Both the position numbers and the translations under genes were made by a program. 64,000 nt of DNA from Bacteroidota bacterium (GTDB lineage: Bacteria; Bacteroidota; Ignavibacteria; UBA10030; SZUA-254): NCBI GenBank assembly GCA_035495255.1, contig DATJGD010000039.1:54677-118676 (forward strand), in the 5' to 3' direction. Of the stretch, positions 47,373 through 59,727 are shown piece by piece. Position 1 is the first letter of the stretch; every line of letters begins with the position of its first letter. The notes under the pieces are model-generated. The model made no database searches and was not told the DNA's origin. It saw only the letters and a program-made list of their open reading frames with translations.

Positions 47373-47410
47373 TTATAGCTGACTCGCGGGTCAAAAGCAA
47401 AACAAGCCCA

Positions 47411-47437
47411 TTGTCGAAAATGATTCATTTTCGACAA
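47411..47437. promoter_or_regulatory. Perfect 27-nt palindrome (13-1-13) in the divergent fadD-like/nrdJ intergenic region; candidate operator
   Basis: TTGTCGAAAATGA-T-TCATTTTCGACAA; core ATGAnTCAT resembles TetR/FadR-type fatty-acid operators; 40-150 nt upstream of the acyl-CoA ligase start. Confidence 0.4.
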
Positions 47438-47563
47438 TTATGAAGAGGACTTTTGACTGCAGTCACACTTGCGAATTTGAGTAGATTTTGAGGATTCTGT
47501 CAAGCAAAATATTTTCTTAAGTCCTGTAGAATCATGCGTCAGAAATTTTTAATGAAATATCCC

Positions 47564-47592
47564 TTGACTTCTTCTCCTCAAGTGTATATATT
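47564..47592 (+). promoter_or_regulatory. Sigma-70-like promoter candidate for nrdJ
   Basis: TTGACT-17 nt-TATATT; would give a ~240-nt 5' leader. Confidence 0.3.
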
Positions 47593-47842
47593 CCAACCCA
47601 ATACCGACGAACCTTGGGGGCTCTGTCGGCCGGGAATTCGTAGTCTACCCTTTCTGAGATAATACTGAATATAGAGGAAGTATTAGTGTCGGGACAACAA
47701 CGGGTACGTCATCCTTTTCAATTCCCCTCAACCAGGAAATCACAAGTGTGTTTCAATTTTTTCTCAGGCATTCCATTTCCGGAATCGGCCTGACGATCAA
47801 TCCACAATTTTATCATCACAAGTTTAGAGGAGACTGTTGTAC

Positions 47843-50617
47843 ATGGCAAACCCAGAAATGACAATGCTCGGCGGACGGGATGAGCGGGAGACAATCTCTG
47901 TCGGCATACCTGTTCCCACACCACAACCCGTAGCAGCGAAACGCGGACTCCAGTTCCGCCGTTACTACACAACCCCGGGTGTGCACCCCTTCGATACGAT
48001 CGAATGGGAAAAGCGAACAGCGATCATCAGCAACGAAAAGGGGGAAACGATTTTTGAGCAGAAGGATGTGGAGGTTCCGAAGTCCTGGTCGATGACGGCA
48101 ACCAACATTGTCGTTTCGAAATACTTTCATGGCAGGCTCGGTTCGACCGAACGCGAAAGCAGCGTGCGGCAGCTGGTCGAACGCGTCGCGAAGACGATCA
48201 CAGGCTGGGGCTACAAATCCAATTACTTCGCCTCGGAACAGGATGCGGAAACATTTTACATGGAGCTGGTATTCCTCCTGGTGAACCAGTACATGGCGTT
48301 CAACAGCCCGGTGTGGTTCAACGTCGGCATTGAAGAGAAACCGCAGTGCTCGGCTTGCTTCATCAACTCGGTCGAGGACACCATGGACTCGATCCTCGAG
48401 CTCGCGCGCACGGAAGGACGCCTCTTCAAGTGGGGTTCGGGGACAGGTTCGAACTTATCGACGCTCCGTTCATCGCGTGAAGGACTCTCCGGAGGCGGTA
48501 CGGCATCAGGCCCGGTCTCGTTCATGAAGGGCTACGACGCATTCGCCGGAGTCATCAAGTCCGGCGGAAAAACACGCCGCGCGGCGAAGATGGTAATCCT
48601 CAACGCAGAACATCCGGATATCATGGATTTCATCCGCTGCAAATCGGACGAAGAGAAGAAAGCCTGGACGCTCATTGATTCCGGCTACGACGGCGGCTTT
48701 AACGTGCCCGGCGGAGCGTACGATTCAGTGTTTTATCAGAATGCGAACCATTCCGTACGCGTCAACGATGAGTTCATGCGCGCCGTGGTCGACGACAAAT
48801 CGTGGACAACCAAGGCGGTCCGCGGCGGACAGGTGATGGATACGTACCGTGCCCGCGACATCATGAAGAACATGGCAGACTCGGCATGGATCTGCGGCGA
48901 CCCGGGGGTGCAATTTCATACGACGATCAACAACTGGCATACGTCTTCGAATACTGCGCCGATCAACTCCTCCAATCCGTGCAGCGAGTATATGTTTTTG
49001 GACGATACAGCATGCAACCTTGCTTCACTTAACCTGATGAAATTCCGTGCACCCGACGGCGAGTTCGATATTGAATCATTCTGCCACGCGGTGAGCATTA
49101 CCATCACGGCACAGGAGATCGAGGTAGATAACGCGAGCTACCCGACGCCGAGGATTGCCCAAAACAGTTATGACTATCGCCCGCTTGGGCTCGGCTATGC
49201 GAACCTCGGCGCGCTCCTCATGACACGCGGCCTTGCCTATGACAGCGACGAGGGCCGCTCCTACTCGGCAGCCGTCACCGCGCTCATGTGCGGCCAGGCA
49301 TACAAACAGTCGGCGCTCATCTCTAAGGAAATTGGTCCGTTCAAGGGATTCCCGAAAAACAAAGAGCCGATGCTCAAAGTCATGAAGATGCACGGGCTCG
49401 CGGCCGATAGGATTGAAGATAAGCATGTTCCCAGCGATCTCTTGACATCCGCGCGCAAAGTGTGGGATGACGCCTATGCCATCGGACGCGAATATGGATT
49501 CCGCAACTCTCAGGCGACAGTGCTCGCTCCCACAGGGACGATCGGGTTCATGATGGATTGCGATACCACAGGCGTCGAGCCCGATATCGCCCTCGTCAAA
49601 TACAAGAAGCTCGTGGGCGGCGGTTTATTGAAAATCGTCAATACCACCGTCCCCATCGCGCTCAAAAAACTCGGCTACATCGACGAGCAGATCGAGCACA
49701 TCGTGGCGTACATCGACAAGAACGACACGATCGAGGGCGCACCGCACCTGCGTGAAGAGCATCTCCCGGTCTTTGACTGCGCGTTCAAGGCGGCGAAGGG
49801 CGTCCGCACCATTCATTACATGGGACATGTCAAGATGATGTCCGCGGTGCAGCCCTACATCTCCGGCGCGATCTCAAAAACTGTGAATATGCCGACCAAT
49901 GTGACGTCGGAAGACATTGCCAGCACGTATGTCGAAGCCTGGCGTTTAGGATTGAAGGCGATTGCGATTTACCGTGACGGGTGTAAGCGGACACAGCCTC
50001 TGAACACAAGCCTCGATGAGCTCACGACAACGGCGAAGAAGAAAATTGTCCTGCGCCGCCGTCTGCCCGATGAGCGGAACGCTTTGACGCACAAGTTCTC
50101 GATTGCCGGGCACGAGGGATACATTACCGTAGGCCTGTACGAAGACAATACTCCCGGTGAAATATTCATTACGATGTCGAAAGAAGGCTCCACGATCTCC
50201 GGATTGATGGACGCGTTTGCGACATCTATTTCAATGGCGCTCCAGTATGGAGTGCCTCTCCGGGTCCTGGTCGAGAAATTTCAGCATATGCGGTTTGAAC
50301 CGAGCGGTTTTACCGGTAACAAGGATGTGCCAATCGCGAAATCCGTGCTCGATTACATCTTCCGGTGGCTTGGAAAGAAGTTCCTTCCTCCCGACGAGCA
50401 GCCCAAAGCGGCGGAAGAGAATACAGACACAACAGCTGTGAGCGCCGCCGGCACGATTGTCAAGACCAGCATTTCCTCGTCAATGGAAAGCACGGAGAAA
50501 GAGGTCTACAAGATGCAGGCAGACGCTCCCCCCTGCCATTCCTGCGGAAGCATCATGGTCCGCAGCGGCACGTGCTATAAGTGCGTGAACTGCGGAGAGA
50601 CATCGGGGTGTTCCTGA
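47843..50617 (+). CDS. nrdJ: Class II (adenosylcobalamin-dependent) ribonucleoside-diphosphate reductase
   Basis: ATP-cone-less class II RNR; …SNPCSEYMFLDDTACNLASLNL… (NPC[GS]E thiyl-radical loop); C-terminal Zn ribbon CHSCGS…CYKCVNCG. RBS AGAGGAG 8 nt upstream of ATG 47843 (ORF track starts at TTG 47837). Confidence 0.9.
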   Translation: MANPEMTMLGGRDERETISVGIPVPTPQPVAAKRGLQFRRYYTTPGVHPFDTIEWEKRTAIISNEKGETIFEQKDVEVPKSWSMTATNIVVSKYFHGRLGSTERESSVRQLVERVAKTITGWGYKSNYFASEQDAETFYMELVFLLVNQYMAFNSPVWFNVGIEEKPQCSACFINSVEDTMDSILELARTEGRLFKWGSGTGSNLSTLRSSREGLSGGGTASGPVSFMKGYDAFAGVIKSGGKTRRAAKMVILNAEHPDIMDFIRCKSDEEKKAWTLIDSGYDGGFNVPGGAYDSVFYQNANHSVRVNDEFMRAVVDDKSWTTKAVRGGQVMDTYRARDIMKNMADSAWICGDPGVQFHTTINNWHTSSNTAPINSSNPCSEYMFLDDTACNLASLNLMKFRAPDGEFDIESFCHAVSITITAQEIEVDNASYPTPRIAQNSYDYRPLGLGYANLGALLMTRGLAYDSDEGRSYSAAVTALMCGQAYKQSALISKEIGPFKGFPKNKEPMLKVMKMHGLAADRIEDKHVPSDLLTSARKVWDDAYAIGREYGFRNSQATVLAPTGTIGFMMDCDTTGVEPDIALVKYKKLVGGGLLKIVNTTVPIALKKLGYIDEQIEHIVAYIDKNDTIEGAPHLREEHLPVFDCAFKAAKGVRTIHYMGHVKMMSAVQPYISGAISKTVNMPTNVTSEDIASTYVEAWRLGLKAIAIYRDGCKRTQPLNTSLDELTTTAKKKIVLRRRLPDERNALTHKFSIAGHEGYITVGLYEDNTPGEIFITMSKEGSTISGLMDAFATSISMALQYGVPLRVLVEKFQHMRFEPSGFTGNKDVPIAKSVLDYIFRWLGKKFLPPDEQPKAAEENTDTTAVSAAGTIVKTSISSSMESTEKEVYKMQADAPPCHSCGSIMVRSGTCYKCVNCGETSGCS

Positions 50618-50731
50618 TCCGCAGGCCAGTGTAACTGAGCAGAATCACCAAGCAGCCCGTCCTGGTACACGCCGGGATGGGCTGTGTCGTTCTTAGGCTG
50701 AAAGTAATTCATTAGATTTCGTGGAGGCGAA

Positions 50732-50923
50732 ATGAATCTCTTACCAAAGCAGTACGATCAAATCTCAGATATCCTCAAAGAAACGAGCTCCGTCATCCTG
50801 GGAGGGCTAATCATAGGAACGCTTCTCTCTGAACATCCAGGTTTTCCGCTTGTAACATTAGGAATACTTCTTTATCTTATTTGTGCAGTATCTGCGGTCC
50901 ATTTAAAGAGATCAGGAGAATGA
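50732..50923 (+). CDS. Small two-TM membrane protein, hypothetical
   Basis: 63 aa, …SSVILGGLIIGTLLSEHPGFPLVTLGILLYLICAVSAV…; 114 nt after nrdJ. Confidence 0.4.
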   Translation: MNLLPKQYDQISDILKETSSVILGGLIIGTLLSEHPGFPLVTLGILLYLICAVSAVHLKRSGE

Positions 50924-50925
50924 AC

Positions 50926-51027
50926 ATGGAAGGCGTTATTTATATAGCGGCGATGGTCGCGTTGTTTGCACTCGTGACAGTTGCCCTTACGTGGAAACAA
51001 ACCCATCGTAAGGATTCAGGCAAATAG
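50926..51027 (+). CDS. Unannotated 33-aa single-TM peptide, translationally coupled to 50732..50923
   Basis: ATG 2 nt after the upstream TGA; AGGAGA RBS inside the upstream ORF; MEGVIYIAAMVALFALVTVALTWKQTHRKDSGK*. Below the 60-aa ORF-track cutoff. Confidence 0.3.
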   Translation: MEGVIYIAAMVALFALVTVALTWKQTHRKDSGK

Positions 51028-51172
51028 GTGTACATTTCAGAAAGAAATCTTCCTGGTACCCTTTTAATCTAATTATCCAAATTCCCGTTCTCCATTACTC
51101 TCTTCTGCTCTCTCTCTGTCGCCGTCGGTATCGCCCTCCCTTGCCGCTTTCCGTATTAAGGACACTCAAGCC

Positions 51173-51787
51173 ATGACCGAATCAAATCCCAATGCACGCT
51201 TAGAGGCCTTTTCCGACGGGGTATTCGCCATTGCGCTCACACTCTTGATTATCGACGTCAGGCTCCCTTCGAATGTGAGCATTAAAAGCACAGCTGAGTT
51301 CTGGGGCGCTCTTCTGCGCATCACCCCGCTGATCTTCGCGTTCGTGCTGAGCTTCGGCATCATCCTCATCACGTGGGTAAATCACCACAATAGTTTTAAG
51401 CTGTTAAACAAGTCCTGCTCCGCATTTATTTATGCGAACGGGCTCCTGTTGCTCGCGGTCGCGGTTGTGCCGTTCCCGACAGCCTTGCTGGGTCAGTATC
51501 TTCTTACCGAATATGCCGCCCCCGCGGTCATACTCTATGATTCCGCAATAGCGCTGCTGGCCCTTGGATGGATCTTCATGACCCGCGCCGCATTGAAATA
51601 CAAGCTGGGAAAGAGCGAGAAGGCGGTAGCGATTATCCGGGAGAACAGCAGGTACGCGTTCATCGCATTCCCGGCATACGTTTGTTTTGCAATCATTGCG
51701 ATCTGGTTTCCCCTTGCCGTCGCCCTTGTCATTACAGCCATCTGGATCTTTTGGTTAGTCTTAGGAATCAAACTTAAGCATGAATAA
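51173..51787 (+). CDS. TMEM175/DUF1211-family potassium-channel homologue
   Basis: Signature TM1 RLEAFSDGVFAIALTLLIIDV (cf. family motif RxxxFSDGVFAIAxTLLVLE); 6 TM, 204 aa. Confidence 0.75.
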   Translation: MTESNPNARLEAFSDGVFAIALTLLIIDVRLPSNVSIKSTAEFWGALLRITPLIFAFVLSFGIILITWVNHHNSFKLLNKSCSAFIYANGLLLLAVAVVPFPTALLGQYLLTEYAAPAVILYDSAIALLALGWIFMTRAALKYKLGKSEKAVAIIRENSRYAFIAFPAYVCFAIIAIWFPLAVALVITAIWIFWLVLGIKLKHE

Positions 51788-51790
51788 AGA

Positions 51791-52360
51791 ATGAATATCT
51801 TTGATAATAACGTCGGCCTCTATTTTTACAGCGCGGTTCTCCAGGCGAATACGGCGCTCATCGCCTTCGCGGCGGTGTTCGCAGTCTTTCGTTTTCAGGC
51901 AATTGTCGAGAGCCTGCACCATAAAGATTCAGAGATCACATCGCTCATTGAATATTTTTTCGCGCGGATCCCGATGGAAGCACCGGATGAAATCCGGTTT
52001 CATTTCACTCACCTCACCACGCTGCGGCATGCGCTTGAGGAGATCCTGGCTAATCCTTCTTATAATCCACCGTATAAAGAGTCAGTTCAGAAGCTCTCCG
52101 ACGACACGCATCTTGAAGTTCTGTTCGTGGAACGAACTCACCTGCTCCAAAAGCAGCGCCAGCTGAAGGCGCTCTTCAGGCTGCCCCTGATTTCAGTTCT
52201 CATCGTCATTGTCATGTCATTATGCTTGCTGCCATTATCGAACTATTTCCACAACTATTTGGCTCAATGGGAATATGTGCCGATCGCCGCGACGATTTTG
52301 ACGAATATCTGGTCGCTCGTCATCAACGTGCAGTTCGTGTTTAGGACCATTAACGAGTGA
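51791..52360 (+). CDS. Hypothetical membrane protein (1 N-terminal + 2 C-terminal TM helices)
   Basis: Starts 4 nt after the TMEM175 stop; no motifs recognised. Confidence 0.4.
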   Translation: MNIFDNNVGLYFYSAVLQANTALIAFAAVFAVFRFQAIVESLHHKDSEITSLIEYFFARIPMEAPDEIRFHFTHLTTLRHALEEILANPSYNPPYKESVQKLSDDTHLEVLFVERTHLLQKQRQLKALFRLPLISVLIVIVMSLCLLPLSNYFHNYLAQWEYVPIAATILTNIWSLVINVQFVFRTINE

Positions 52361-52373
52361 ACGCCGATCCCTC

Positions 52374-52754
52374 ATGCCCTCCTCAAAGGCTCCTCTTCCC
52401 GTTACTCTTCTCGCCTGGCTCTTCATCCTTGTCGGTGTCGTCGGGATCGGCTACCACTCAACCGAGCTGAATCTCCACGACCCGTTTGCGGACGGGCATC
52501 TGGTACTCGGACTGCTTGTCCGCCTGCTCGCGATTATCGGAGGAGTGCTGCTCTTGAGAAAAGTCTTCTGGGCGCGCTGGATTCTTATTCTCTGGACACT
52601 GTACCATGTTGTGCTGAGTGCGACGCATAGCGTGCCGCAACTCGTTCTCCATTGTGTTGTCATGATTGTTGTGACGTATATACTTCTCCGCCCGGCAAGT
52701 GCAGCGTACTTCAAGGAATTGACGAGCCAACAGCAAAACGAGCACACGCTGTAG
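52374..52754 (+). CDS. Hypothetical 4-TM membrane protein
   Basis: 126 aa; hydrophobic segments LLAWLFILVGVVGIGY, LVLGLLVRLLAIIGGVLLL, WILILWTLYHVVL, LVLHCVVMIVVTYILL. Confidence 0.4.
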   Translation: MPSSKAPLPVTLLAWLFILVGVVGIGYHSTELNLHDPFADGHLVLGLLVRLLAIIGGVLLLRKVFWARWILILWTLYHVVLSATHSVPQLVLHCVVMIVVTYILLRPASAAYFKELTSQQQNEHTL

Positions 52755-52868
52755 TTCGTGCATGCCATCCTCGCCTGCCTCGCTTCCCGCGTTCAATCCG
52801 CCCGGCGTACTTGCACTTCGCGGCCCCTTTAATTATCATGTCGAAAGGATGAATACCACATCGACAGT

Positions 52869-53258
52869 ATGGCGGAGATAAACGATCTTCACACCCCCGA
52901 ACGTCCGGTTGCAGGATACGTGGCGGTGCAAATCATTACCCTTATCGCCTCGATCATTGCCATTATTTGGGGCGTTGCACTCGCATTCGCGGTCGCGTTC
53001 CCGGGCCCTAGCGGCGAGTGGGCGGCAATGGGAATCTTCTTCGCGTATATCGTAAATTTCCCGGTTGGCGCCATCACACTGGCGCTCGCTCTGGTACTTC
53101 GACGCGGGAGCCCGAAGCTTCGCCGGTTCTGCATCATTACAGCGACCATTGCGCTTCTCATACCCCTTTTGGTACATGCTATCGACCGCTACAACACCCG
53201 GTGGAAATATAAAATCGTAAGCTGTCCGGACACCGCGCTTCCCAGGAATTTTGGTTGA
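52869..53258 (+). CDS. Hypothetical 3-4-TM membrane protein
   Basis: 129 aa; overlaps the GNAT gene start by 8 nt. Confidence 0.4.
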   Translation: MAEINDLHTPERPVAGYVAVQIITLIASIIAIIWGVALAFAVAFPGPSGEWAAMGIFFAYIVNFPVGAITLALALVLRRGSPKLRRFCIITATIALLIPLLVHAIDRYNTRWKYKIVSCPDTALPRNFG

Positions 53259-53697
53259 ACTGATGGCCCTCACCGTCAAGCGGGTGCGCGCATTTGATCC
53301 GATGCTTCTCCAACAACTCTTTTCGGAATCAGGCTCAACAACCATTTCACCGAACCCCGCCTTTTTCGAGGACCGAAAGAACATCCTCCTCGTCGCATAT
53401 GAAGGACTCCGCCCGTGCGGATTCCTCTGCGGATACCTGCTGACGAGTCTGCGTGTACAATCTCCGAAACTGTTTCTTTATTCGATCGATGTCGCGCCCG
53501 AGTACCGGCGCAGGGGAGCAGGAACCCTCCTCATATCGGAGTTGACATCCATCGCCCGGGATAATTCGTGCAGCGAAATATTTGTTCTTTCCAACAAGAG
53601 TAACAACGCGGCAGTCCGGCTCTATGAACGCACCGGCGGAAGGCCGGAAAACCCCGATGATGTGATGTTCGTGTACCGGCTTGAACAGAGTGCATAG
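53251..53697 (+). CDS. GNAT-family N-acetyltransferase
   Basis: Acetyl-CoA-binding motif …VAPEYRRRGAGTLLISEL…NNAAVRLYERTGG. Confidence 0.75.
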   Translation: MVELMALTVKRVRAFDPMLLQQLFSESGSTTISPNPAFFEDRKNILLVAYEGLRPCGFLCGYLLTSLRVQSPKLFLYSIDVAPEYRRRGAGTLLISELTSIARDNSCSEIFVLSNKSNNAAVRLYERTGGRPENPDDVMFVYRLEQSA

Positions 53698-53828
53698 AGA
53701 GCGAGGGCAGGCGGATATTGGAAGACGCGGGAATGGAATGGAAATGTTTCACTGGAGACATACGGGAGGTGAATGTGGATGTGGATTTGGAGTTCGAGTT
53801 CGTATTCCGTATAATTTGCCATCGAGTA

Positions 53829-53855
53829 GGGCGATGGATGCCCAATGACTCCTAC
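53829..53855 (+). ncRNA. Candidate degenerate fluoride riboswitch (crcB-motif-like) element in the crcB leader
   Basis: GGGCGAUGGAUGCCC then AAUGACUCCUAC directly upstream of the RBS/ATG of crcB. Matches the 5' (GGCGAUGG…) and 3' (…AUGAnUCCUAC) conserved blocks of the crcB motif but lacks the internal stem. TATAAT box at 53808-53813. Confidence 0.35.
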
Positions 53856-53869
53856 TGAAAAGGGGAACC

Positions 53870-54262
53870 TTGAAGATGCAGCAAATCTTGTACATCGCCG
53901 CCGGCGGTTCGCTCGGGGCTGTCGCCCGCTACGGCATGGCGGCATATGTTTATCGAATGAGCGCCGGGTCATTTCCCTGGGGAACACTCGTTATCAATCT
54001 TACCGGCTCATTCGTCATCGGAGTTCTTGCGGAACTCTTCGACAACCTCATCGTTCCCTCGATGTGGCGAAGCTTCCTTACCATCGGTTTTCTCGGCGCG
54101 TACACAACGTTTTCTACGTTCACGCTCGAGACGGTCAATCTCATCCACGACGGGGAATTTCGCCTTGCGGCAGGAAATATCCTTGCGAGCAACATCGCCG
54201 GGATACTCCTGGTGCTGTTCGGCATGTATTGCTCCAAATTCATTCTTCGGGCGGCGGCCTGA
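53870..54262 (+). CDS. crcB: Fluoride ion channel Fluc/CrcB
   Basis: 130 aa, 4 TM; …GGSLGAVARY…GTLVINLTGSFVIG…TFSTF… CrcB signature. Confidence 0.85.
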   Translation: MKMQQILYIAAGGSLGAVARYGMAAYVYRMSAGSFPWGTLVINLTGSFVIGVLAELFDNLIVPSMWRSFLTIGFLGAYTTFSTFTLETVNLIHDGEFRLAAGNILASNIAGILLVLFGMYCSKFILRAAA

Positions 54263-54266
54263 GCGC

Positions 54267-54623
54267 ATGAAACTGCCTGAAGACGCCCTTCTCCTTCGCG
54301 TATTCATCGGTGAGTCGGATCGCCATAACGGAAAGCCGCTCTACGAGCAGATTGTCCTGAGAGCGAGGGAGCTGAACCTTGCGGGCGCGACCGTCCTGAG
54401 GGGAATCATGGGCTTCGGCGCCGACAGCCGGATTCACACGGCGAAACTCCTGGAACTGTCGATTGATTTGCCGATCGTCATCGAGATTGTCGATACCGAA
54501 GAGAACATTGATAAACTTCTCCCATTCCTCGATGAAACAGTGACCGAAGGCCTGGTGACACTGGAACGGATGCGCGTTATTGCGTACAGGCATAGCGGAA
54601 ACAAGACAACGTCCACACGATAG
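54267..54623 (+). CDS. DUF190 (PII-like fold) protein, commonly co-encoded with crcB
   Basis: MKLPEDALLLRVFIGESDRHNGKPLYEQIV…GATVLRGIMGFG; starts 5 nt after the crcB stop. Confidence 0.7.
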   Translation: MKLPEDALLLRVFIGESDRHNGKPLYEQIVLRARELNLAGATVLRGIMGFGADSRIHTAKLLELSIDLPIVIEIVDTEENIDKLLPFLDETVTEGLVTLERMRVIAYRHSGNKTTSTR

Positions 54624-54635
54624 CAAAAGGAACCC

Positions 54636-55103
54636 ATGCAATCGAAAGCGAAAACCCCAAAAGAGTACGTCGACTCGCTGCCGGAAGAGCGGAAGAAGGC
54701 GATTTCCGAACTTAGGAAAGTTATCAAAAAGAATCTTCCGAAAGGCTTCGTGGAAGAAATGAGCTACGGAATGCTTGGGTATGTGGTACCTCATTCTCTA
54801 TACCCTCCCGGATACCATTGCAATCCTGAGCTGCCGCTGCCGTTTATGAACATCGCGTCGCAAAAAAACTTCATCTCCGTGTACCATATGGGCGTCTATG
54901 CCGACAAGGCGACGGCGAAGTGGCTTATGACAGAGTACACGAAGCGTACCGGAAAGAAAGTAGACTCCGGAAAAAGCTGCCTGCGGTTTAAGAAGCCCGG
55001 CGATATCCCCTACGAGCTTATCGGAGAGCTTGCTTCACGGATAACGCCGAAGCAATGGATAGCCGCCTATGAAAAACTGTACAAAGGAAAATCGAAGTCG
55101 TGA
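54636..55103 (+). CDS. DUF1801 (YdhG-like) domain protein
   Basis: …KTPKEYVDSLPEERKKAISELRKVIKKNLPKGFVEEMSYGMLGY…. Confidence 0.6.
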   Translation: MQSKAKTPKEYVDSLPEERKKAISELRKVIKKNLPKGFVEEMSYGMLGYVVPHSLYPPGYHCNPELPLPFMNIASQKNFISVYHMGVYADKATAKWLMTEYTKRTGKKVDSGKSCLRFKKPGDIPYELIGELASRITPKQWIAAYEKLYKGKSKS

Positions 55104-55176
55104 ATACTCAATGCCGACGGGCCGCCTTCAGCAGTTATCTTAATTCATCATCTACCCACATCACAGGAGACGCACT

Positions 55177-55737
55177 ATGGTAGAACTATCCGCACTCTGG
55201 CTCCCCATTCTTCTTTCCGGGGTGTTCGTATTCTTTGCCAGCTTTGTCCTTCACATGTTATTGCCGTTCCATAAAGGGGATTATCTGAAAGCCCCGAACG
55301 AGGACCGGGTCATGGACTCGATCCGCGCACTCGAGCTTCCCCCCGGCGATTATATGATGCCGAAGGCCTGCGATAGGAAAGAGATGAAATCGGCCGAGTT
55401 CGACGCGAAGATGAAAAAAGGGCCCGTGATGATGTTTACCGTGTTCCCCTCAGGTCCTATCTCTATGGGCTCCAGCCTTGCGCAATGGTTTGTGTATTGC
55501 GTGATCGTAGGAATCTTCGCCGCCTATGTCTCCGGCCGCGCGCTTCCGGTTGGCGTCGACTATCTTCATGTCTTCCGGTTTGCAGGCGTAAGCGCATTCA
55601 TGTGTTACTCTGTTGCGCTGTGGCAGAATTCGATCTGGTACAAACGGTCGTGGATGACAACATTTAAGCTGACGATCGACGGGCTCGTCTATGCCCTGCT
55701 TACTGCCGGGGTGTTTGGCTGGCTCTGGCCCCGTTGA
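55177..55737 (+). CDS. Hypothetical membrane protein
   Basis: 186 aa; 1 N-terminal and ~3 C-terminal TM helices; no motifs recognised. Confidence 0.4.
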
Positions 55738-55929: not shown

Positions 55930-58900
55930 TTGCGGGGGCATCGTTGGATTCAACGTTCGCTGAAAGGCAGTACGATGAAAAAATTAAAATCGATCCTCAA
56001 TTGCAACCGTCTCGGTTTGCTCGTCATTGCAACATGTCTGGCATCGTCTCTCCTTTTCCCGCAAACGGTAAAATACCGGATCCCGGTGACTGTCACAGAC
56101 AGCGGTATCGTCATATTCTCGCAACGACTCGATGCCGGATTGCACCCCAGCGCGTCCGTATGTATCGACACGATAACCCTTACCGGATTCACCGATCATT
56201 GGAGCGAAAACGACAGCAGCTCGGTACGTGAGATCGAGGGTCCCCCACCCACTCCGGCAACGGATATACGTTTCACATCTTCGTGCATAATACAACCATA
56301 CCTTCAGGACATCCGTCATTTTACAGATACGAACCAGGTTGACACCCTCAAGTTCAGGGTCACCCTCGATGCTACCCACGGCGAAGATTCTGTCGCCGTG
56401 AAATTCCGCTGGCCTCACGTTCTCTCTGAATATGCCGACTCAGTAATTCTTGCAAAGTCAACCGGCGCTGAGCGCTTCAGAATCAATATGACGACCCAGG
56501 ATTCGTTCAGTGTCAGTCACTCGATTAACGCCAACGGAACCTCCTTCGGCACAGTATTGATTATTATCAAAGGGCCTAAAGTCCCGCCGCCACCCCCACC
56601 CCCGGTCACACCGGTCTTTCCGTCGATGGGCGAAGAAGATGTCCCACTGAGTCCGACATTTACATGGAATGCCGCTCCTCAGGCGTACTTCTACAAGTTC
56701 CAGCTTGCGACAGATTCGCTCTTCACAACAATAATTTCATCCAGCGTACCCTCCGGGACATCTGCATCGGTGAGTGGCCTGCAGCAAAACAAGACCTATT
56801 ACTGGCGCGTCCTCGTGAGTAATCCGTATGGGTTCAGCTATTACCAAAATCCGGTTTTGCGGTTCAAAACCCTTATTCTTTTACCGGGTGTGCCGCCACT
56901 CCTATCGCCTGCTGATAATGCAACAGGCATCCCCACATCCGGGACGACGTTGCAATGGGGAACGGCTTTATCCTCCTCTCCGGTAACCTATCACGTCCAA
57001 CTCTCCACCGACCAGAATTTTCTTTCAAATATCGTTGCTGAGGATTCTACACTTTCCGGATTGACTTTTCCGACCCCCGCTTTACAGAATTGCCTTACGT
57101 ATTACTGGCGCGTCCGGGCGAAAAACTCAACCGGTCCAGGCGCTTATTCGGCGGCACGATCGTTCAGAGTGGTGCTCTCAGCAACATCGGTTCCGGTCCC
57201 GCTTTCTCCGCTCAATGGAGCCACCGGAGTGGATCCTTCTCCGGTGCTGCACTGGTCTGTGGATTCGTGTTCTATAGGGTATCATCTTCAGGTTTCACGA
57301 GATGCCGCCTTCACCATGGTATTCATCGATCAGATTTTTTCACTTCCTCAATTGGCCATCGGCCCGTTGGGCCAGGACAGTGTTTATTACTGGAGAGTGA
57401 ACTCTATGAACACGATCGACACGAGCGCGTATAGTGCCGTCGATTCTTTCAAGACCAAACTCCTCCCGGCGGCGGCCCCGGTTCTCGTTTCTCCGGTGAA
57501 CGGAGACTCACTGGTACCGGCTTCAGCAAATATCGTTTGGCATCGCGTGAAGTATGCCACCCGTTATCACCTGCAAATTGCGAACAATCCGTTTTTTGTC
57601 TCACCGTTCGAAAACGACTCGACACTGACGGACACAATGAAAGCGGAGCTTTTGGTTAGCTGCGTCAAATATTTCTACCGGGTGAGAGCGATTAATGATT
57701 CAGGTTCGGCAGGATTCAACAGCGCAGGCGGCAACTTCAGCGTCCTGCACCTTCCCGATGCCCCGGCAGGCGCATCACCTCCGAACGGTTCTCTCGGGAT
57801 TCCTTCGAACACGACGCTCATCTGGACGAGCGATGATTGTGCACGGGCGTTCCGGGTTCAGCTCTCGGGTGACGCCCAATTCACGCAGCTCAGGATCAAT
57901 CAAATGATCGTTGGTATACACTCGCTTGCAATCGGACCCCTTGGATCAGACAGCATGTTCTATTGGAGAATCAAATCCATCAACGCTGTCGACTCAAGCC
58001 AGTTCAGCCTTGTGGATTCGTTCCGGACAACCGGCACCATCAGCGGCATCAAATGGAATGATCTTAATTTTGATGGAATCAGGGATTCGAGCGAACCAGG
58101 GTTAGGAGGCTGGACGATTGAAATCCATGCCGATTCCTGCAGTGGCCCTCTCGTCGCTTCTGATACGACATCGGGCAACGGACAATATACGATCGAACTT
58201 CCGCCCGGCACGTATGGTGTGAAGGAAGTCCTCAAGCCGGGCTACGGCCAATCATATCCGGGCGGTAATTGCTATACCGTCTCGGTCCTTCACAACGTCA
58301 CCAACGTGAACTTCGGAAATTATCTGAAGAACAGTGTCAGCGGTACGACATACCGGGACGCGAACAACAACGGCATCCGCGACAGTGCGGAATCGACGGT
58401 CGACGGATTTGTCATCCGTCTCACCGCGGATAGCGCTCACGGGTACGCCGTCGATTCCGTCGTTAGCGCAAATGGCGGATCGTTCAGCTTTACCGATCTC
58501 TCGCCCGGAACGTACACACTCACGGAGCGCCCCGCCACGGGCTGGACAATCTCCGTGCCGTCCGGCGGAACCTACACCATACCGCTGCTTACGGGGATGT
58601 ATCTCACGGGCAAAGATTTCGGAGATTATTATCTCGGCGACGATTCAACGTATCGAACATGGACGTACGCACAGCTCAGTGCCGATACGGAGAAAAAGCC
58701 GATCAAGGCGCCACGGCCAGGTAAGACGATTCATGTTCCAAACAGCGCAAACCTGGTACGCGATTTGATGAAAACAGACCTCGTGACATTGCCGGTCGGC
58801 TTACCGAACATCCAGATCCCCGGGACCAGAAAAATCAAAGGTTATCTCTACCCCAAGCGACAGGGTGACGTCTTCACAACGTTTAATACGAGGGGTATAA

Positions 58901-59727
58901 AGCATGGCCAATTCGTATTTCCGCCTGCGGGTCCGGGACCGATAGATTTCAACAATAAGCTCAAGAGAATTTATGGGAAAAAAGCTAATCTCACTGCAAA
59001 AGTCCACGATAATATTTTAATGGCGGAGCTCTTGACATTAAAGATCAACCTTGCCGCGAGTAGCCAGCACCGAACGAACCCCGGTTTGGGAAACCTGGAA
59101 TACTATGGCCCAAATAGGATCCAGGGGAGACCATTGATGACCGTTGCAGAGATCGCCAGCTACGGCGATTCCATTATGACAAACTGGGAATCGGTAGATC
59201 CGTCCGCATATCCACAATTGTTTACTATTGTTCATGCGATCAATGGAGCGTTTACGACTCCTACCACTGGCGATACTGCCGCGAATGGCGGATGGTTTAC
59301 AGGAGGCGGACGGCTCAAATGGGTCTCCCCTGTCAAGGTACAGTCTACGGGTATCCTGCAGCAGGCAAAGCAGGGCGTCCGAAATCATCCCCAGGCGCCC
59401 CCGGAGCCTTTTGCAGAAATTCCCGATTATTTTGATCTTGCTCAGAACTATCCTAATCCGTTTAATCCGGTAACGACGATACGGTTCAACCTTGCGGTGC
59501 AATCATTCGTCACGTTGAAAATATACAACGTCATCGGGCAAGAAGTGGCCACGCTGTACGATAACGAGTTGATCGATGCAAGCGAAGGTGAAATCGAATT
59601 CGACGGCACGCATCTTGCCTCCGGAATGTACTTCTATCGTTTGACTGCCACCGGCATCGATGAGGAGAGCGGCCAATCCTCCGCTCAGACGTTTACCAGC
59701 GTCAGGAAAATGCTCCTTATCAAATAA
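55930..59727 (+). CDS. Giant T9SS-secreted adhesin-like protein: 5 FN3-like repeats + 2 SdrD-B/Cna-B-like domains + T9SS C-terminal sorting domain; probable start MKKLKSILN… at 55975
   Basis: Five ~95-aa repeats (P.L.SP.NG…L.W……Y.[LV]Q.S.D..F……YYWRV.A.N); two …NDLNFDGIRDS…GW.I…G.Y.F..L.PGTY… domains; C-terminus …AQNYPNPFNPVTTIRFNLAVQSFVTLKIYNVIGQEVATLY…GMYFYRL…. Confidence 0.8.
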   Translation: MRGHRWIQRSLKGSTMKKLKSILNCNRLGLLVIATCLASSLLFPQTVKYRIPVTVTDSGIVIFSQRLDAGLHPSASVCIDTITLTGFTDHWSENDSSSVREIEGPPPTPATDIRFTSSCIIQPYLQDIRHFTDTNQVDTLKFRVTLDATHGEDSVAVKFRWPHVLSEYADSVILAKSTGAERFRINMTTQDSFSVSHSINANGTSFGTVLIIIKGPKVPPPPPPPVTPVFPSMGEEDVPLSPTFTWNAAPQAYFYKFQLATDSLFTTIISSSVPSGTSASVSGLQQNKTYYWRVLVSNPYGFSYYQNPVLRFKTLILLPGVPPLLSPADNATGIPTSGTTLQWGTALSSSPVTYHVQLSTDQNFLSNIVAEDSTLSGLTFPTPALQNCLTYYWRVRAKNSTGPGAYSAARSFRVVLSATSVPVPLSPLNGATGVDPSPVLHWSVDSCSIGYHLQVSRDAAFTMVFIDQIFSLPQLAIGPLGQDSVYYWRVNSMNTIDTSAYSAVDSFKTKLLPAAAPVLVSPVNGDSLVPASANIVWHRVKYATRYHLQIANNPFFVSPFENDSTLTDTMKAELLVSCVKYFYRVRAINDSGSAGFNSAGGNFSVLHLPDAPAGASPPNGSLGIPSNTTLIWTSDDCARAFRVQLSGDAQFTQLRINQMIVGIHSLAIGPLGSDSMFYWRIKSINAVDSSQFSLVDSFRTTGTISGIKWNDLNFDGIRDSSEPGLGGWTIEIHADSCSGPLVASDTTSGNGQYTIELPPGTYGVKEVLKPGYGQSYPGGNCYTVSVLHNVTNVNFGNYLKNSVSGTTYRDANNNGIRDSAESTVDGFVIRLTADSAHGYAVDSVVSANGGSFSFTDLSPGTYTLTERPATGWTISVPSGGTYTIPLLTGMYLTGKDFGDYYLGDDSTYRTWTYAQLSADTEKKPIKAPRPGKTIHVPNSANLVRDLMKTDLVTLPVGLPNIQIPGTRKIKGYLYPKRQGDVFTTFNTRGIKHGQFVFPPAGPGPIDFNNKLKRIYGKKANLTAKVHDNILMAELLTLKINLAASSQHRTNPGLGNLEYYGPNRIQGRPLMTVAEIASYGDSIMTNWESVDPSAYPQLFTIVHAINGAFTTPTTGDTAANGGWFTGGGRLKWVSPVKVQSTGILQQAKQGVRNHPQAPPEPFAEIPDYFDLAQNYPNPFNPVTTIRFNLAVQSFVTLKIYNVIGQEVATLYDNELIDASEGEIEFDGTHLASGMYFYRLTATGIDEESGQSSAQTFTSVRKMLLIK

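Follow-up and report, generated by a model that had tools for sequence, protein, structure and literature searches.

A probable lineage-specific patchwork of genes for small membrane proteins, including a TMEM175 homologue, downstream of nrdJ in a Bacteroidota genome

Do the small membrane-protein genes that surround a bacterial TMEM175 channel gene encode partners of the channel? This question is raised by a run of six ORFs that follows nrdJ in the 64,000-nt stretch of DNA analyzed here (the window), in which the third ORF encodes a TMEM175 homologue. The physiological role of bacterial TMEM175 is unknown (PMC7176437), and a conserved set of partners would have offered a useful handle on it; none was seen here. 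Based on the gene content, the spacers and the relatives described below, we regard the region, with a probability of roughly 0.72, as a lineage-specific patchwork of membrane-protein genes that lie on one strand and evolve independently, and not as a dedicated TMEM175 module. The features concerned are as follows.

47843..50617, + strand: nrdJ, class II (B12-dependent) ribonucleotide reductase (NCBIfam NF005122, 1442 bits), outside the run
50652..50685, + strand: stem-loop 3' of the nrdJ stop codon, with a 15-bp stem in which 9 pairs are G-C
50732..50923, + strand: ORF1, 63 aa, 2 TM segments, GGAGG 5 nt before the ATG
50926..51027, + strand: ORF2, 33 aa, 1 TM segment, with a basic tail at the C terminus and AGGAGA 6 nt upstream
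51028..51172, + strand: CT-rich spacer of 145 nt between ORF2 and the TMEM175 gene
51173..51787, + strand: ORF3, TMEM175 (DUF1211) cation channel homologue, 204 aa, 6 TM segments (Pfam PF06736)
51791..52360, + strand: ORF4, 189 aa, with one TM helix at the N terminus, then about 90 residues of soluble, helical character, then a pair of TM helices at the C terminus
52374..52754, + strand: ORF5, 126 aa, 3 TM segments by hydropathy scan
52755..52868, + strand: spacer of 114 nt between ORF5 and ORF6, at which the related contig L017 has an extra gene for a 315-aa PD40-repeat protein
52869..53258, + strand: ORF6, 129 aa, 3 TM segments by hydropathy scan, with a conserved FPGPSGEWAA loop
53263..53697, + strand: GNAT acetyltransferase gene, from its probable start (Pfam Acetyltransf_1, E-value = 1e-15)
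53870-54262, + strand: crcB, preceded by a spacer of 172 nt (Pfam CRCB, E-value = 9e-29)
54267-54623, + strand: DUF190 gene (Pfam DUF190, E-value = 1e-40)

As described in the initial annotation, six ORFs of 63, 33, 204, 189, 126 and 129 aa lie in a row on the + strand, and all of them carry TM segments predicted by a hydropathy scan (2, 1, 6, 3, 3 and 3, from ORF1 to ORF6). They can be regarded as real genes, beyond chance ORFs, because each has homologues or is under purifying selection, the dN/dS values across the small ORFs compared being 0.04-0.18. The five non-channel proteins (ORF1, ORF2, ORF4, ORF5 and ORF6) were correctly described as having no recognizable family, since none gave a significant match in Pfam, NCBIfam, PADLOC or PHROGs; the hits of these ORFs to WTF, PGA2, DUF6069 and LmuC in the same collections were sub-threshold noise.

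The run had further been described as operon-like downstream of nrdJ, with spacers of 4-14 nt and implied co-expression with the channel. Short spacers do separate ORF3 from ORF4 (3 nt) and ORF4 from ORF5 (13 nt), and spacers of the same operon type lie between ORF1 and ORF2 (2 nt) and before the GNAT gene (4 nt), but the run is broken by 145 nt between ORF2 and ORF3 and by 114 nt between ORF5 and ORF6. These two breaks and the hairpin after nrdJ argue against a single operon downstream of nrdJ. Co-transcription is plausible for ORF3-ORF4-ORF5. The hairpin at 50652-50685 is strong (dG = -32.7 kcal/mol, z = -5.3, none of 200 shuffles being equally stable) and its U-tail (GUCGUUCUUA) is weak; it probably serves as an intrinsic terminator or marks the transcript end between nrdJ and ORF1, and the run thus probably lies outside the nrdJ transcript. 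The start of nrdJ itself is likely the ATG at 47843 (MANPEM...), which matches the relative L020. The region downstream of nrdJ was different in every relative inspected, and at 80 metagenome loci with nrdJ C-termini of 57-78% identity, ORF1 to ORF6, GNAT and CrcB were all missing downstream.

The 145-nt spacer (51028..51172) probably represents a transcription-unit boundary or a promoter region; it showed no stable fold (-12.2 kcal/mol) and no Rfam match. Scans for sigma-70 promoters and for terminators gave counts not above the shuffle expectation, and an ad-hoc search for TAnnTTTG, which we take to be the Bacteroidetes-type -7 element, revealed no convincing promoter. Rfam searches of the whole window at the gathering threshold, and of 47.2-55.3 kb at E <= 1, detected nothing relevant and, in particular, neither a cobalamin nor a fluoride riboswitch.

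The identification of the third gene as TMEM175/DUF1211 is well founded. ORF3 matches the entire Pfam PF06736 profile (positions 1-88 of 88) with 81.7 bits, the cutoff being 25 (E-value = 5.3e-23), and CmTMEM175 (5VRE) over residues 3-188 (E-value = 4.7e-30), and its six hydrophobic segments in 204 aa constitute the single-repeat bacterial architecture (CmTMEM175 has 203 aa). The signature motif RLEAFSDGVFAIALTLLIIDV occupies residues 9-29, and the key pore and scaffold residues R9, F13-S14-D15, A19, I20, T23, W68 and H71 are all kept. At the sequence level, ORF3 is thus a full-length, single-repeat TMEM175 homologue, and it has already been named 'TMEM175 family protein' by NCBI (HTK81816.1). 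Its product would most likely form a homotetramer of 6-TM subunits whose TM1 helices line a K+-selective leak pore; the hydrophobic gate would be I20 and the selectivity layer T23, and such a channel would most likely influence the membrane potential.

If the small proteins were channel partners, their genes might be expected to accompany TMEM175 elsewhere. Conservation of the neighborhood around TMEM175 was not found beyond close relatives. The order TMEM175-ORF4-ORF5-ORF6-GNAT is kept on a near-identical contig (L012), ORF4-ORF5-(PD40)-ORF6-GNAT-CrcB-DUF190 in about 80% identical DNA (L017), and ORF4-ORF5-ORF6 on a JGI contig of 1741 bp; overall, the contigs that keep the order (L012, L017, L019 and the JGI contigs of 1741 and 1001 bp) all belong to this lineage or a close relative of it. 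The population occurs in soils, for example in JGI 3300033412 and 3300045391. Comparison of the TMEM175, ORF4 and nrdJ neighborhoods revealed no conserved gene order across distinct lineages. The three closest genomic relatives of the channel (53-61% identity) have entirely different flanks, and a small sample of TMEM175 relatives from three genomes and four plasmids (26-61% identity) has other neighbors throughout. The small membrane proteins encoded next to the genomic TMEM175 relatives are unrelated to ORF4, ORF5, ORF6 or one another, and an all-against-all BLASTP comparison of the small neighbors of TMEM175 and ORF4 homologues detected no relationships.

These data bear on the possibility that TMEM175-ORF4-ORF5 is a lineage-specific unit, in which ORF4 and/or ORF5 are recently recruited auxiliary, regulatory or assembly subunits. 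The three genes lie on the same strand with spacers of 3 and 13 nt, so that ORF4 and ORF5 are likely co-expressed with the channel and a lineage-specific functional link is possible; their order is kept in L012, and that of ORF4-ORF5-ORF6 on the 1741-bp contig. Purifying selection on ORF4 is very strong (dN/dS = 0.04), and a specific intramembrane contact is suggested by its first TM helix, which is almost invariant in the family alignment. However, no TMEM175 gene adjoins any of the ORF4 homologues that were inspected outside the clade, an ORF4- or ORF5-like neighbor occurs at none of the seven other TMEM175 loci, and the characterized bacterial TMEM175 channels conduct as homotetramers without partners (PMC7176437). 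We therefore consider such a unit quite unlikely, and the narrower idea that ORF4, possibly with ORF5, has been recruited in this lineage as an auxiliary or regulatory TMEM175 subunit highly improbable; if true, ORF4 would be the first known partner protein of a prokaryotic TMEM175. With adjacency limited to close relatives, the small proteins would probably have no physical or functional partnership with the channel.

The eight homologues found for ORF4 define, as judged from their alignment and surroundings, a rare and strongly constrained membrane-protein family that is mobile between unrelated genomic contexts. Relatives at 44-54% identity occur in five or six such contexts, among them with SIR2_2, HerA and DUF2130 (L004-L007), beside Mu-like phage genes with a glucosaminidase gene two genes downstream (L010/L011), near an IS110 transposase gene (L013), and beside PDDEXK/SNase/UDG/GIY-YIG genes (L016). 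From these contexts, and from the variability of the region downstream of nrdJ, ORF4 could be read as a mobile accessory gene of phages or defense islands (holin-like, superinfection-exclusion or an abortive-infection membrane effector, for example) that is a chance neighbor of TMEM175, with the stretch from nrdJ to crcB forming a variable island. This reading seems unlikely to us. ORF4 had no match in PHROGs and only LmuC (E-value = 0.03) in PADLOC; TBLASTN detected it in none of the 50,697 phage records and 72,556 plasmids, and neither IMG/VR nor a BFVD fold search gave a match. Within 50.6-53.7 kb, neither an integrase or transposase nor a repeat boundary was found, the genes from ORF1 to that of a 186-aa protein contain no mobility family in Pfam or NCBIfam, and the GC content of 50.6-53.7 kb is only mildly lower. 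The specific candidates of a phage holin and a known defense-system protein were rejected for lack of support in PHROGs, PADLOC and phage genomes.

ORF5 and ORF6 are restricted to the lineage, with four homologues (77-100% identity) and five homologues (42-97% identity), respectively. Both are about 79% identical to their L017 counterparts (dN/dS = 0.18 and 0.16), whereas ORF4 is 94% identical to its counterpart there (dN/dS = 0.04), and these unequal rates point to independent constraints on the neighboring genes. The two proteins were rejected as paralogues (hhalign probability of 0.2%). Residues 65-83 of ORF5 are a possible fourth TM segment. The AF2 model of ORF6 has four helices, with a confidence (pLDDT 55) too low for a fold search. 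The assignment of ORF6 to DUF6069 (Pfam PF19545) was rejected, since the score of 16.5 bits is below the cutoff of 27.2 (E-value = 0.009). Around the 114-nt spacer, the DNA similarity to L017 ends at 52711 and restarts at 52914. ORF6 had been reported to overlap the GNAT gene by 8 nt, which needs an unlikely TTG start at 53251. The resulting 148-aa protein is not found in the protein collection, the L012 gene call starts at the equivalent of the ATG at 53263, and the L017 homologue has 144 aa; GNAT thus probably starts at the ATG at 53263, leaving a 4-nt spacer.

Farther downstream, crcB and the DUF190 gene are 90% and 94% identical to their L017 counterparts, and they are the usual fluoride-channel pair. 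Since 11 genes lie on the same strand from 50732 to 55737 and include two channel families, and since the order from ORF4 to DUF190 is kept in L017, the whole run with TMEM175, GNAT, CrcB and DUF190 might be viewed as one ion-stress (K+/F-) regulon. However, with spacers of 145, 114 and 172 nt the genes look more like separate units, no fluoride riboswitch or other Rfam element was detected, and crcB is not in the vicinity of TMEM175 relatives at other loci, so that we give this regulon very little credence.

At the other end of the run, ORF1 and ORF2 have a history of their own. An exhaustive search found six cluster representatives of ORF1, all of 63-66 aa and matching at full length with 31-98% identity, and their alignment has gaps at the C-terminal end only; the sources are mostly Ignavibacteriota-labelled MAGs. 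Distant homologues of ORF1 are MBI5216213.1 (HY960_10715), MBS4029646.1 (KGZ58_13545) and MBI3194671.1 (HYZ34_09435). Comparison of ORF1 with the relative L100 gave a dN/dS of 0.16. ORF2 starts 2 nt past the ORF1 stop codon, and its Shine-Dalgarno motif lies inside the end of ORF1. The two genes look translationally coupled, as had been noted, because a 62%-identical relative keeps both the junction from stop codon to ATG and the GGAG Shine-Dalgarno motif. In L100, MEGVILIGALVVL... begins 2 nt past the stop codon of the ORF1 homologue, and on a JGI contig the exact 33-aa ORF2 product has been called, in a layout of a 63-aa gene, a 33-aa gene and a partial 125-aa gene. Elsewhere, the pair follows a GIY-YIG gene and not nrdJ. 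By these comparisons, ORF1-ORF2 is a bicistronic small-protein pair that is conserved independently in Ignavibacteriota-type MAGs. In the source MAG, ORF1 was left uncalled by NCBI; the recognition of a pair missed there, yet conserved in relatives, is a minor gain of this analysis, and the definition of the ORF4 family is a second.

In short, the patchwork that we favor would sit between a terminated nrdJ and the GNAT/crcB-DUF190 block and would probably comprise three units: the conserved, translationally coupled tiny membrane proteins ORF1-ORF2; TMEM175-ORF4-ORF5, joined by the 3- and 13-nt spacers and co-transcribed; and ORF6-GNAT. Within it, ORF3 is a routine TMEM175 homologue amid lineage-specific hypothetical membrane proteins.

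In comparison with known systems, ORF1-ORF2 resembles translationally coupled gene pairs for small membrane proteins in its 2-nt gap, in the Shine-Dalgarno motif at the end of the upstream ORF and in the kept junction. It differs from such pairs in that it belongs to no small-protein family described in Pfam, NCBIfam, PADLOC or PHROGs, and in that no larger complex is encoded alongside in a conserved manner. The crcB-DUF190 genes lack a fluoride riboswitch upstream in the Rfam searches, and no evidence ties them to TMEM175; in having both Pfam families and a 4-nt spacer, however, they are like the fluoride-resistance gene pair. ORF3 is known here from its sequence and does not differ in it from CmTMEM175 (PDB 5VRE) and MtTMEM175 (PDB 6HD8): the length class, the 6 TM segments, the single repeat, the RxxxFSD motif on TM1, the gate Ile, the selectivity Thr and the TM2 Trp/His pair are all shared, and the residues from R9 to H71 listed above have the spacing of R24, F28-S29-D30, A34, L35, T38, W74 and H77 in MtTMEM175 (PMC7176437).

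All six of the small + strand ORFs listed by the initial annotation at 50.7–53.3 kb, downstream of nrdJ, are present, and hydrophobic segments were found in every one.

Small membrane-protein genes downstream of nrdJ (hydrophobic segments from a Kyte-Doolittle scan)
ORF1: 50732-50923, + strand, 63 aa, two hydrophobic segments
ORF2: 50926-51027, + strand, 33 aa, one hydrophobic segment
ORF3: 51173-51787, + strand, 204 aa, six hydrophobic segments
ORF4: 51791-52360, + strand, 189 aa, three hydrophobic segments
ORF5: 52374-52754, + strand, 126 aa, three hydrophobic segments
ORF6: 52869-53258, + strand, 129 aa, three hydrophobic segments

Read by eye, ORF5 may have a fourth segment at residues 65-83, and ORF6 has four helices in a low-confidence structure model (pLDDT 55, unreliable). 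Beyond ORF6, the + strand carries genes for a GNAT acetyltransferase, CrcB, DUF190 and DUF1801 proteins and a 186-aa membrane protein. The NCBI entries of the source MAG list ORF3 as HTK81816.1 ('TMEM175 family protein') and ORF4-6 as VL633_05955 to VL633_05965, annotated as hypothetical; ORF1 and ORF2 have no entry for this MAG in the protein collection. The window also encodes (55930-59727) a 1265-aa protein in which segments of about 90 aa recur many times; by eye, its C-terminal segment (…PNPFNPVTTIRFNL…) looks like a type IX secretion sorting domain.

ORF3 scores 81.7 bits against Pfam PF06736 (cutoff 25), and its residues 3-188 align to the crystallised Chamaesiphon TMEM175 (5VRE; E = 4.7e-30), the alignments to human and Marivirga TMEM175 being weaker. 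Judged by the roles given for MtTMEM175 (PMC7176437), ORF3 retains R9, the F13-S14-D15 motif, A19, the selectivity threonine T23 and the TM2 pair W68/H71, with I20 at the gate position (L35 in Mt, I23 in Cm). This upholds the assignment to TMEM175: ORF3 is a regular family member, which by inference would form a tetrameric K+-selective leak channel. It adds one more protein to a known family and already carries that annotation, and the function of prokaryotic TMEM175 has been described as unclear (PMC7176437). In an uncultured Bacteroidetes MAG (L003, 6001-6616), a TMEM175 homologue is split into ORFs of 75 and 121 aa, owing either to a frameshift that makes it a pseudogene or to faulty assembly.

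For the other five proteins, Pfam, NCBIfam, PADLOC and PHROGs gave nothing significant, in agreement with the earlier statement that they lack recognisable motifs; they are uncharacterised, narrow families. ORF5 and ORF6 were considered as paralogues, and are not related to each other. All six ORFs are real genes. Homologues were found for ORF4 (eight, 44-99% identity), ORF5 (four, 77-100%) and ORF6 (five, 42-97%), and an exhaustive HMMER search for ORF1 gave six cluster representatives of 63-66 aa (31-98% identity) that align without internal gaps, three of the clusters including members from MAGs labelled Ignavibacteriae/Ignavibacteriales. The dN/dS values (Nei-Gojobori) against L017, a relative about 80% identical in DNA, were 0.04, 0.18 and 0.16 for ORF4, ORF5 and ORF6, and 0.13, 0.07 and 0.03 for the flanking GNAT, CrcB and DUF190 genes; ORF1, compared with another relative (L100, ORF1 62% identical), gave 0.16. 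ORF2 has a Shine-Dalgarno motif (AGGAGA) 6 nt 5' of its start, and the gene calls of a JGI contig include an identical 33-aa gene in the same layout, 63-aa, 33-aa, partial 125-aa. The pair junction is kept in L100, where, just as in the window, the frame MEGVILIGALVVL... begins 2 nt past the stop of ORF1. On the simplest reading ORF1-ORF2 is a conserved, translationally coupled pair, probably missed by annotation though conserved.

Spacers of 4-14 nt had been proposed from the channel gene onward; because those measured are 2, 145, 3, 13 and 114 nt in order from ORF1 to ORF6, two junctions (ORF2-ORF3 and ORF5-ORF6) lie far from this range. Co-expression with the channel is likely for ORF4 and ORF5, whose spacing makes co-transcription of TMEM175-ORF4-ORF5 likely. 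An 8-nt overlap of ORF6 with the GNAT gene would require a TTG start, whereas the gene calls of relatives point to ATG 53263: the call on the near-identical contig L012 begins at the equivalent position, the L017 homologue has 144 aa, and a 148-aa version was not found in the protein collection. On the upstream side, nrdJ probably terminates its own transcript at a strong stem-loop (50652-50685; 15 pairs, dG -32.7 kcal/mol, z -5.3), which none of 200 shuffles equalled in stability. Rfam gave no family at gathering score in the whole window and nothing relevant at E <= 1 in 47.2-55.3 kb. The nrdJ leader (47373-47842, about 470 nt of intergenic DNA) has a sigma-70-like promoter match at 47564-47592 (10/12) and matches no Rfam family, the cobalamin riboswitch included.

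The gene order of the run is retained only in L012 (99.8% identical in DNA), L019, two JGI contigs of sample 3300045391, and L017 (77-84% identical in DNA). L017 reads ORF4-ORF5-PD40-ORF6-GNAT-CrcB-DUF190-DUF1801, the 315-aa PD40-repeat gene (821-1768), whose product looks like a signal-peptide protein, lying exactly at the 114-nt ORF5/ORF6 spacer (window 52755-52868). The window nowhere carries this gene, and the difference is an indel polymorphism, by insertion or deletion; the ORF5/ORF6 junction is therefore a breakpoint even within the clade.

Beyond the immediate lineage, the conserved neighbourhood that the initial annotation had named as its test is absent, since the relatives of TMEM175, ORF4 and nrdJ that were inspected all have different surroundings. 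Among 185,579 species genomes, the three closest TMEM175 relatives (53-61% identity) are flanked by unrelated genes, among them, to judge from their translations, those for an isoprenylcysteine-methyltransferase-like membrane protein, a geranylgeranyl-reductase-like flavoprotein and an AsmA-like protein, and the small membrane proteins adjoining them resemble neither ORF4-6 nor each other. Four annotated plasmid TMEM175 loci (Deinococcus, Acidisarcina, Hymenobacter and Nostoc) differ from the window and mutually. In 80 metagenome loci with an nrdJ C-terminus 57-78% identical, flanks of up to 7 kb downstream contained none of ORF1-6, GNAT or CrcB, and the three closest nrdJ loci have quite different genes downstream; the ORF1-ORF2 pair was found again after a GIY-YIG gene, not nrdJ. 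The ORF4 family (186-206 aa, 3 TM, first helix almost invariant: LYFYSAVLQANTALIAFAAVF) has no match in PADLOC, PHROGs, phages or plasmids. Its contexts are very different and often mobile or defence-type: after SIR2_2, HerA and DUF2130 genes (L004-L007), adjoining Mu-like phage genes, with a glucosaminidase gene two genes downstream (L010/L011), near an IS110 transposase (L013-L015), beside PDDEXK/SNase/UDG/GIY-YIG genes (L016), or with unrelated genes on either side (L008). None of these homologues (44-54% identity) has a TMEM175 gene nearby. A lineage-specific functional link of TMEM175 with ORF4 and/or ORF5 would fit their likely co-transcription, which alone does not establish partnership, and few TMEM175 neighbourhoods were sampled; with the relatives arranged as they are, we regard such a link as improbable. 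The run is most simply read as an accreted cluster of independent genes: besides the ORF1-ORF2 pair, it would hold a TMEM175 channel that stands alone, the membrane protein ORF4, which is rare, under strong constraint and apparently mobile, and the polytopic proteins ORF5 and ORF6, both restricted to the lineage. What bacterial TMEM175 does is not made more testable by this locus.

Downstream of the run, crcB-DUF190 is a familiar fluoride module. In the window it is preceded by a 172-nt spacer (53698-53869) with a 14-pair hairpin at 53777-53807, and Rfam found no fluoride riboswitch upstream even at E <= 1. The pair has the same genes as the known module and lacks a detectable riboswitch, which in many phyla is unusual for these two genes.
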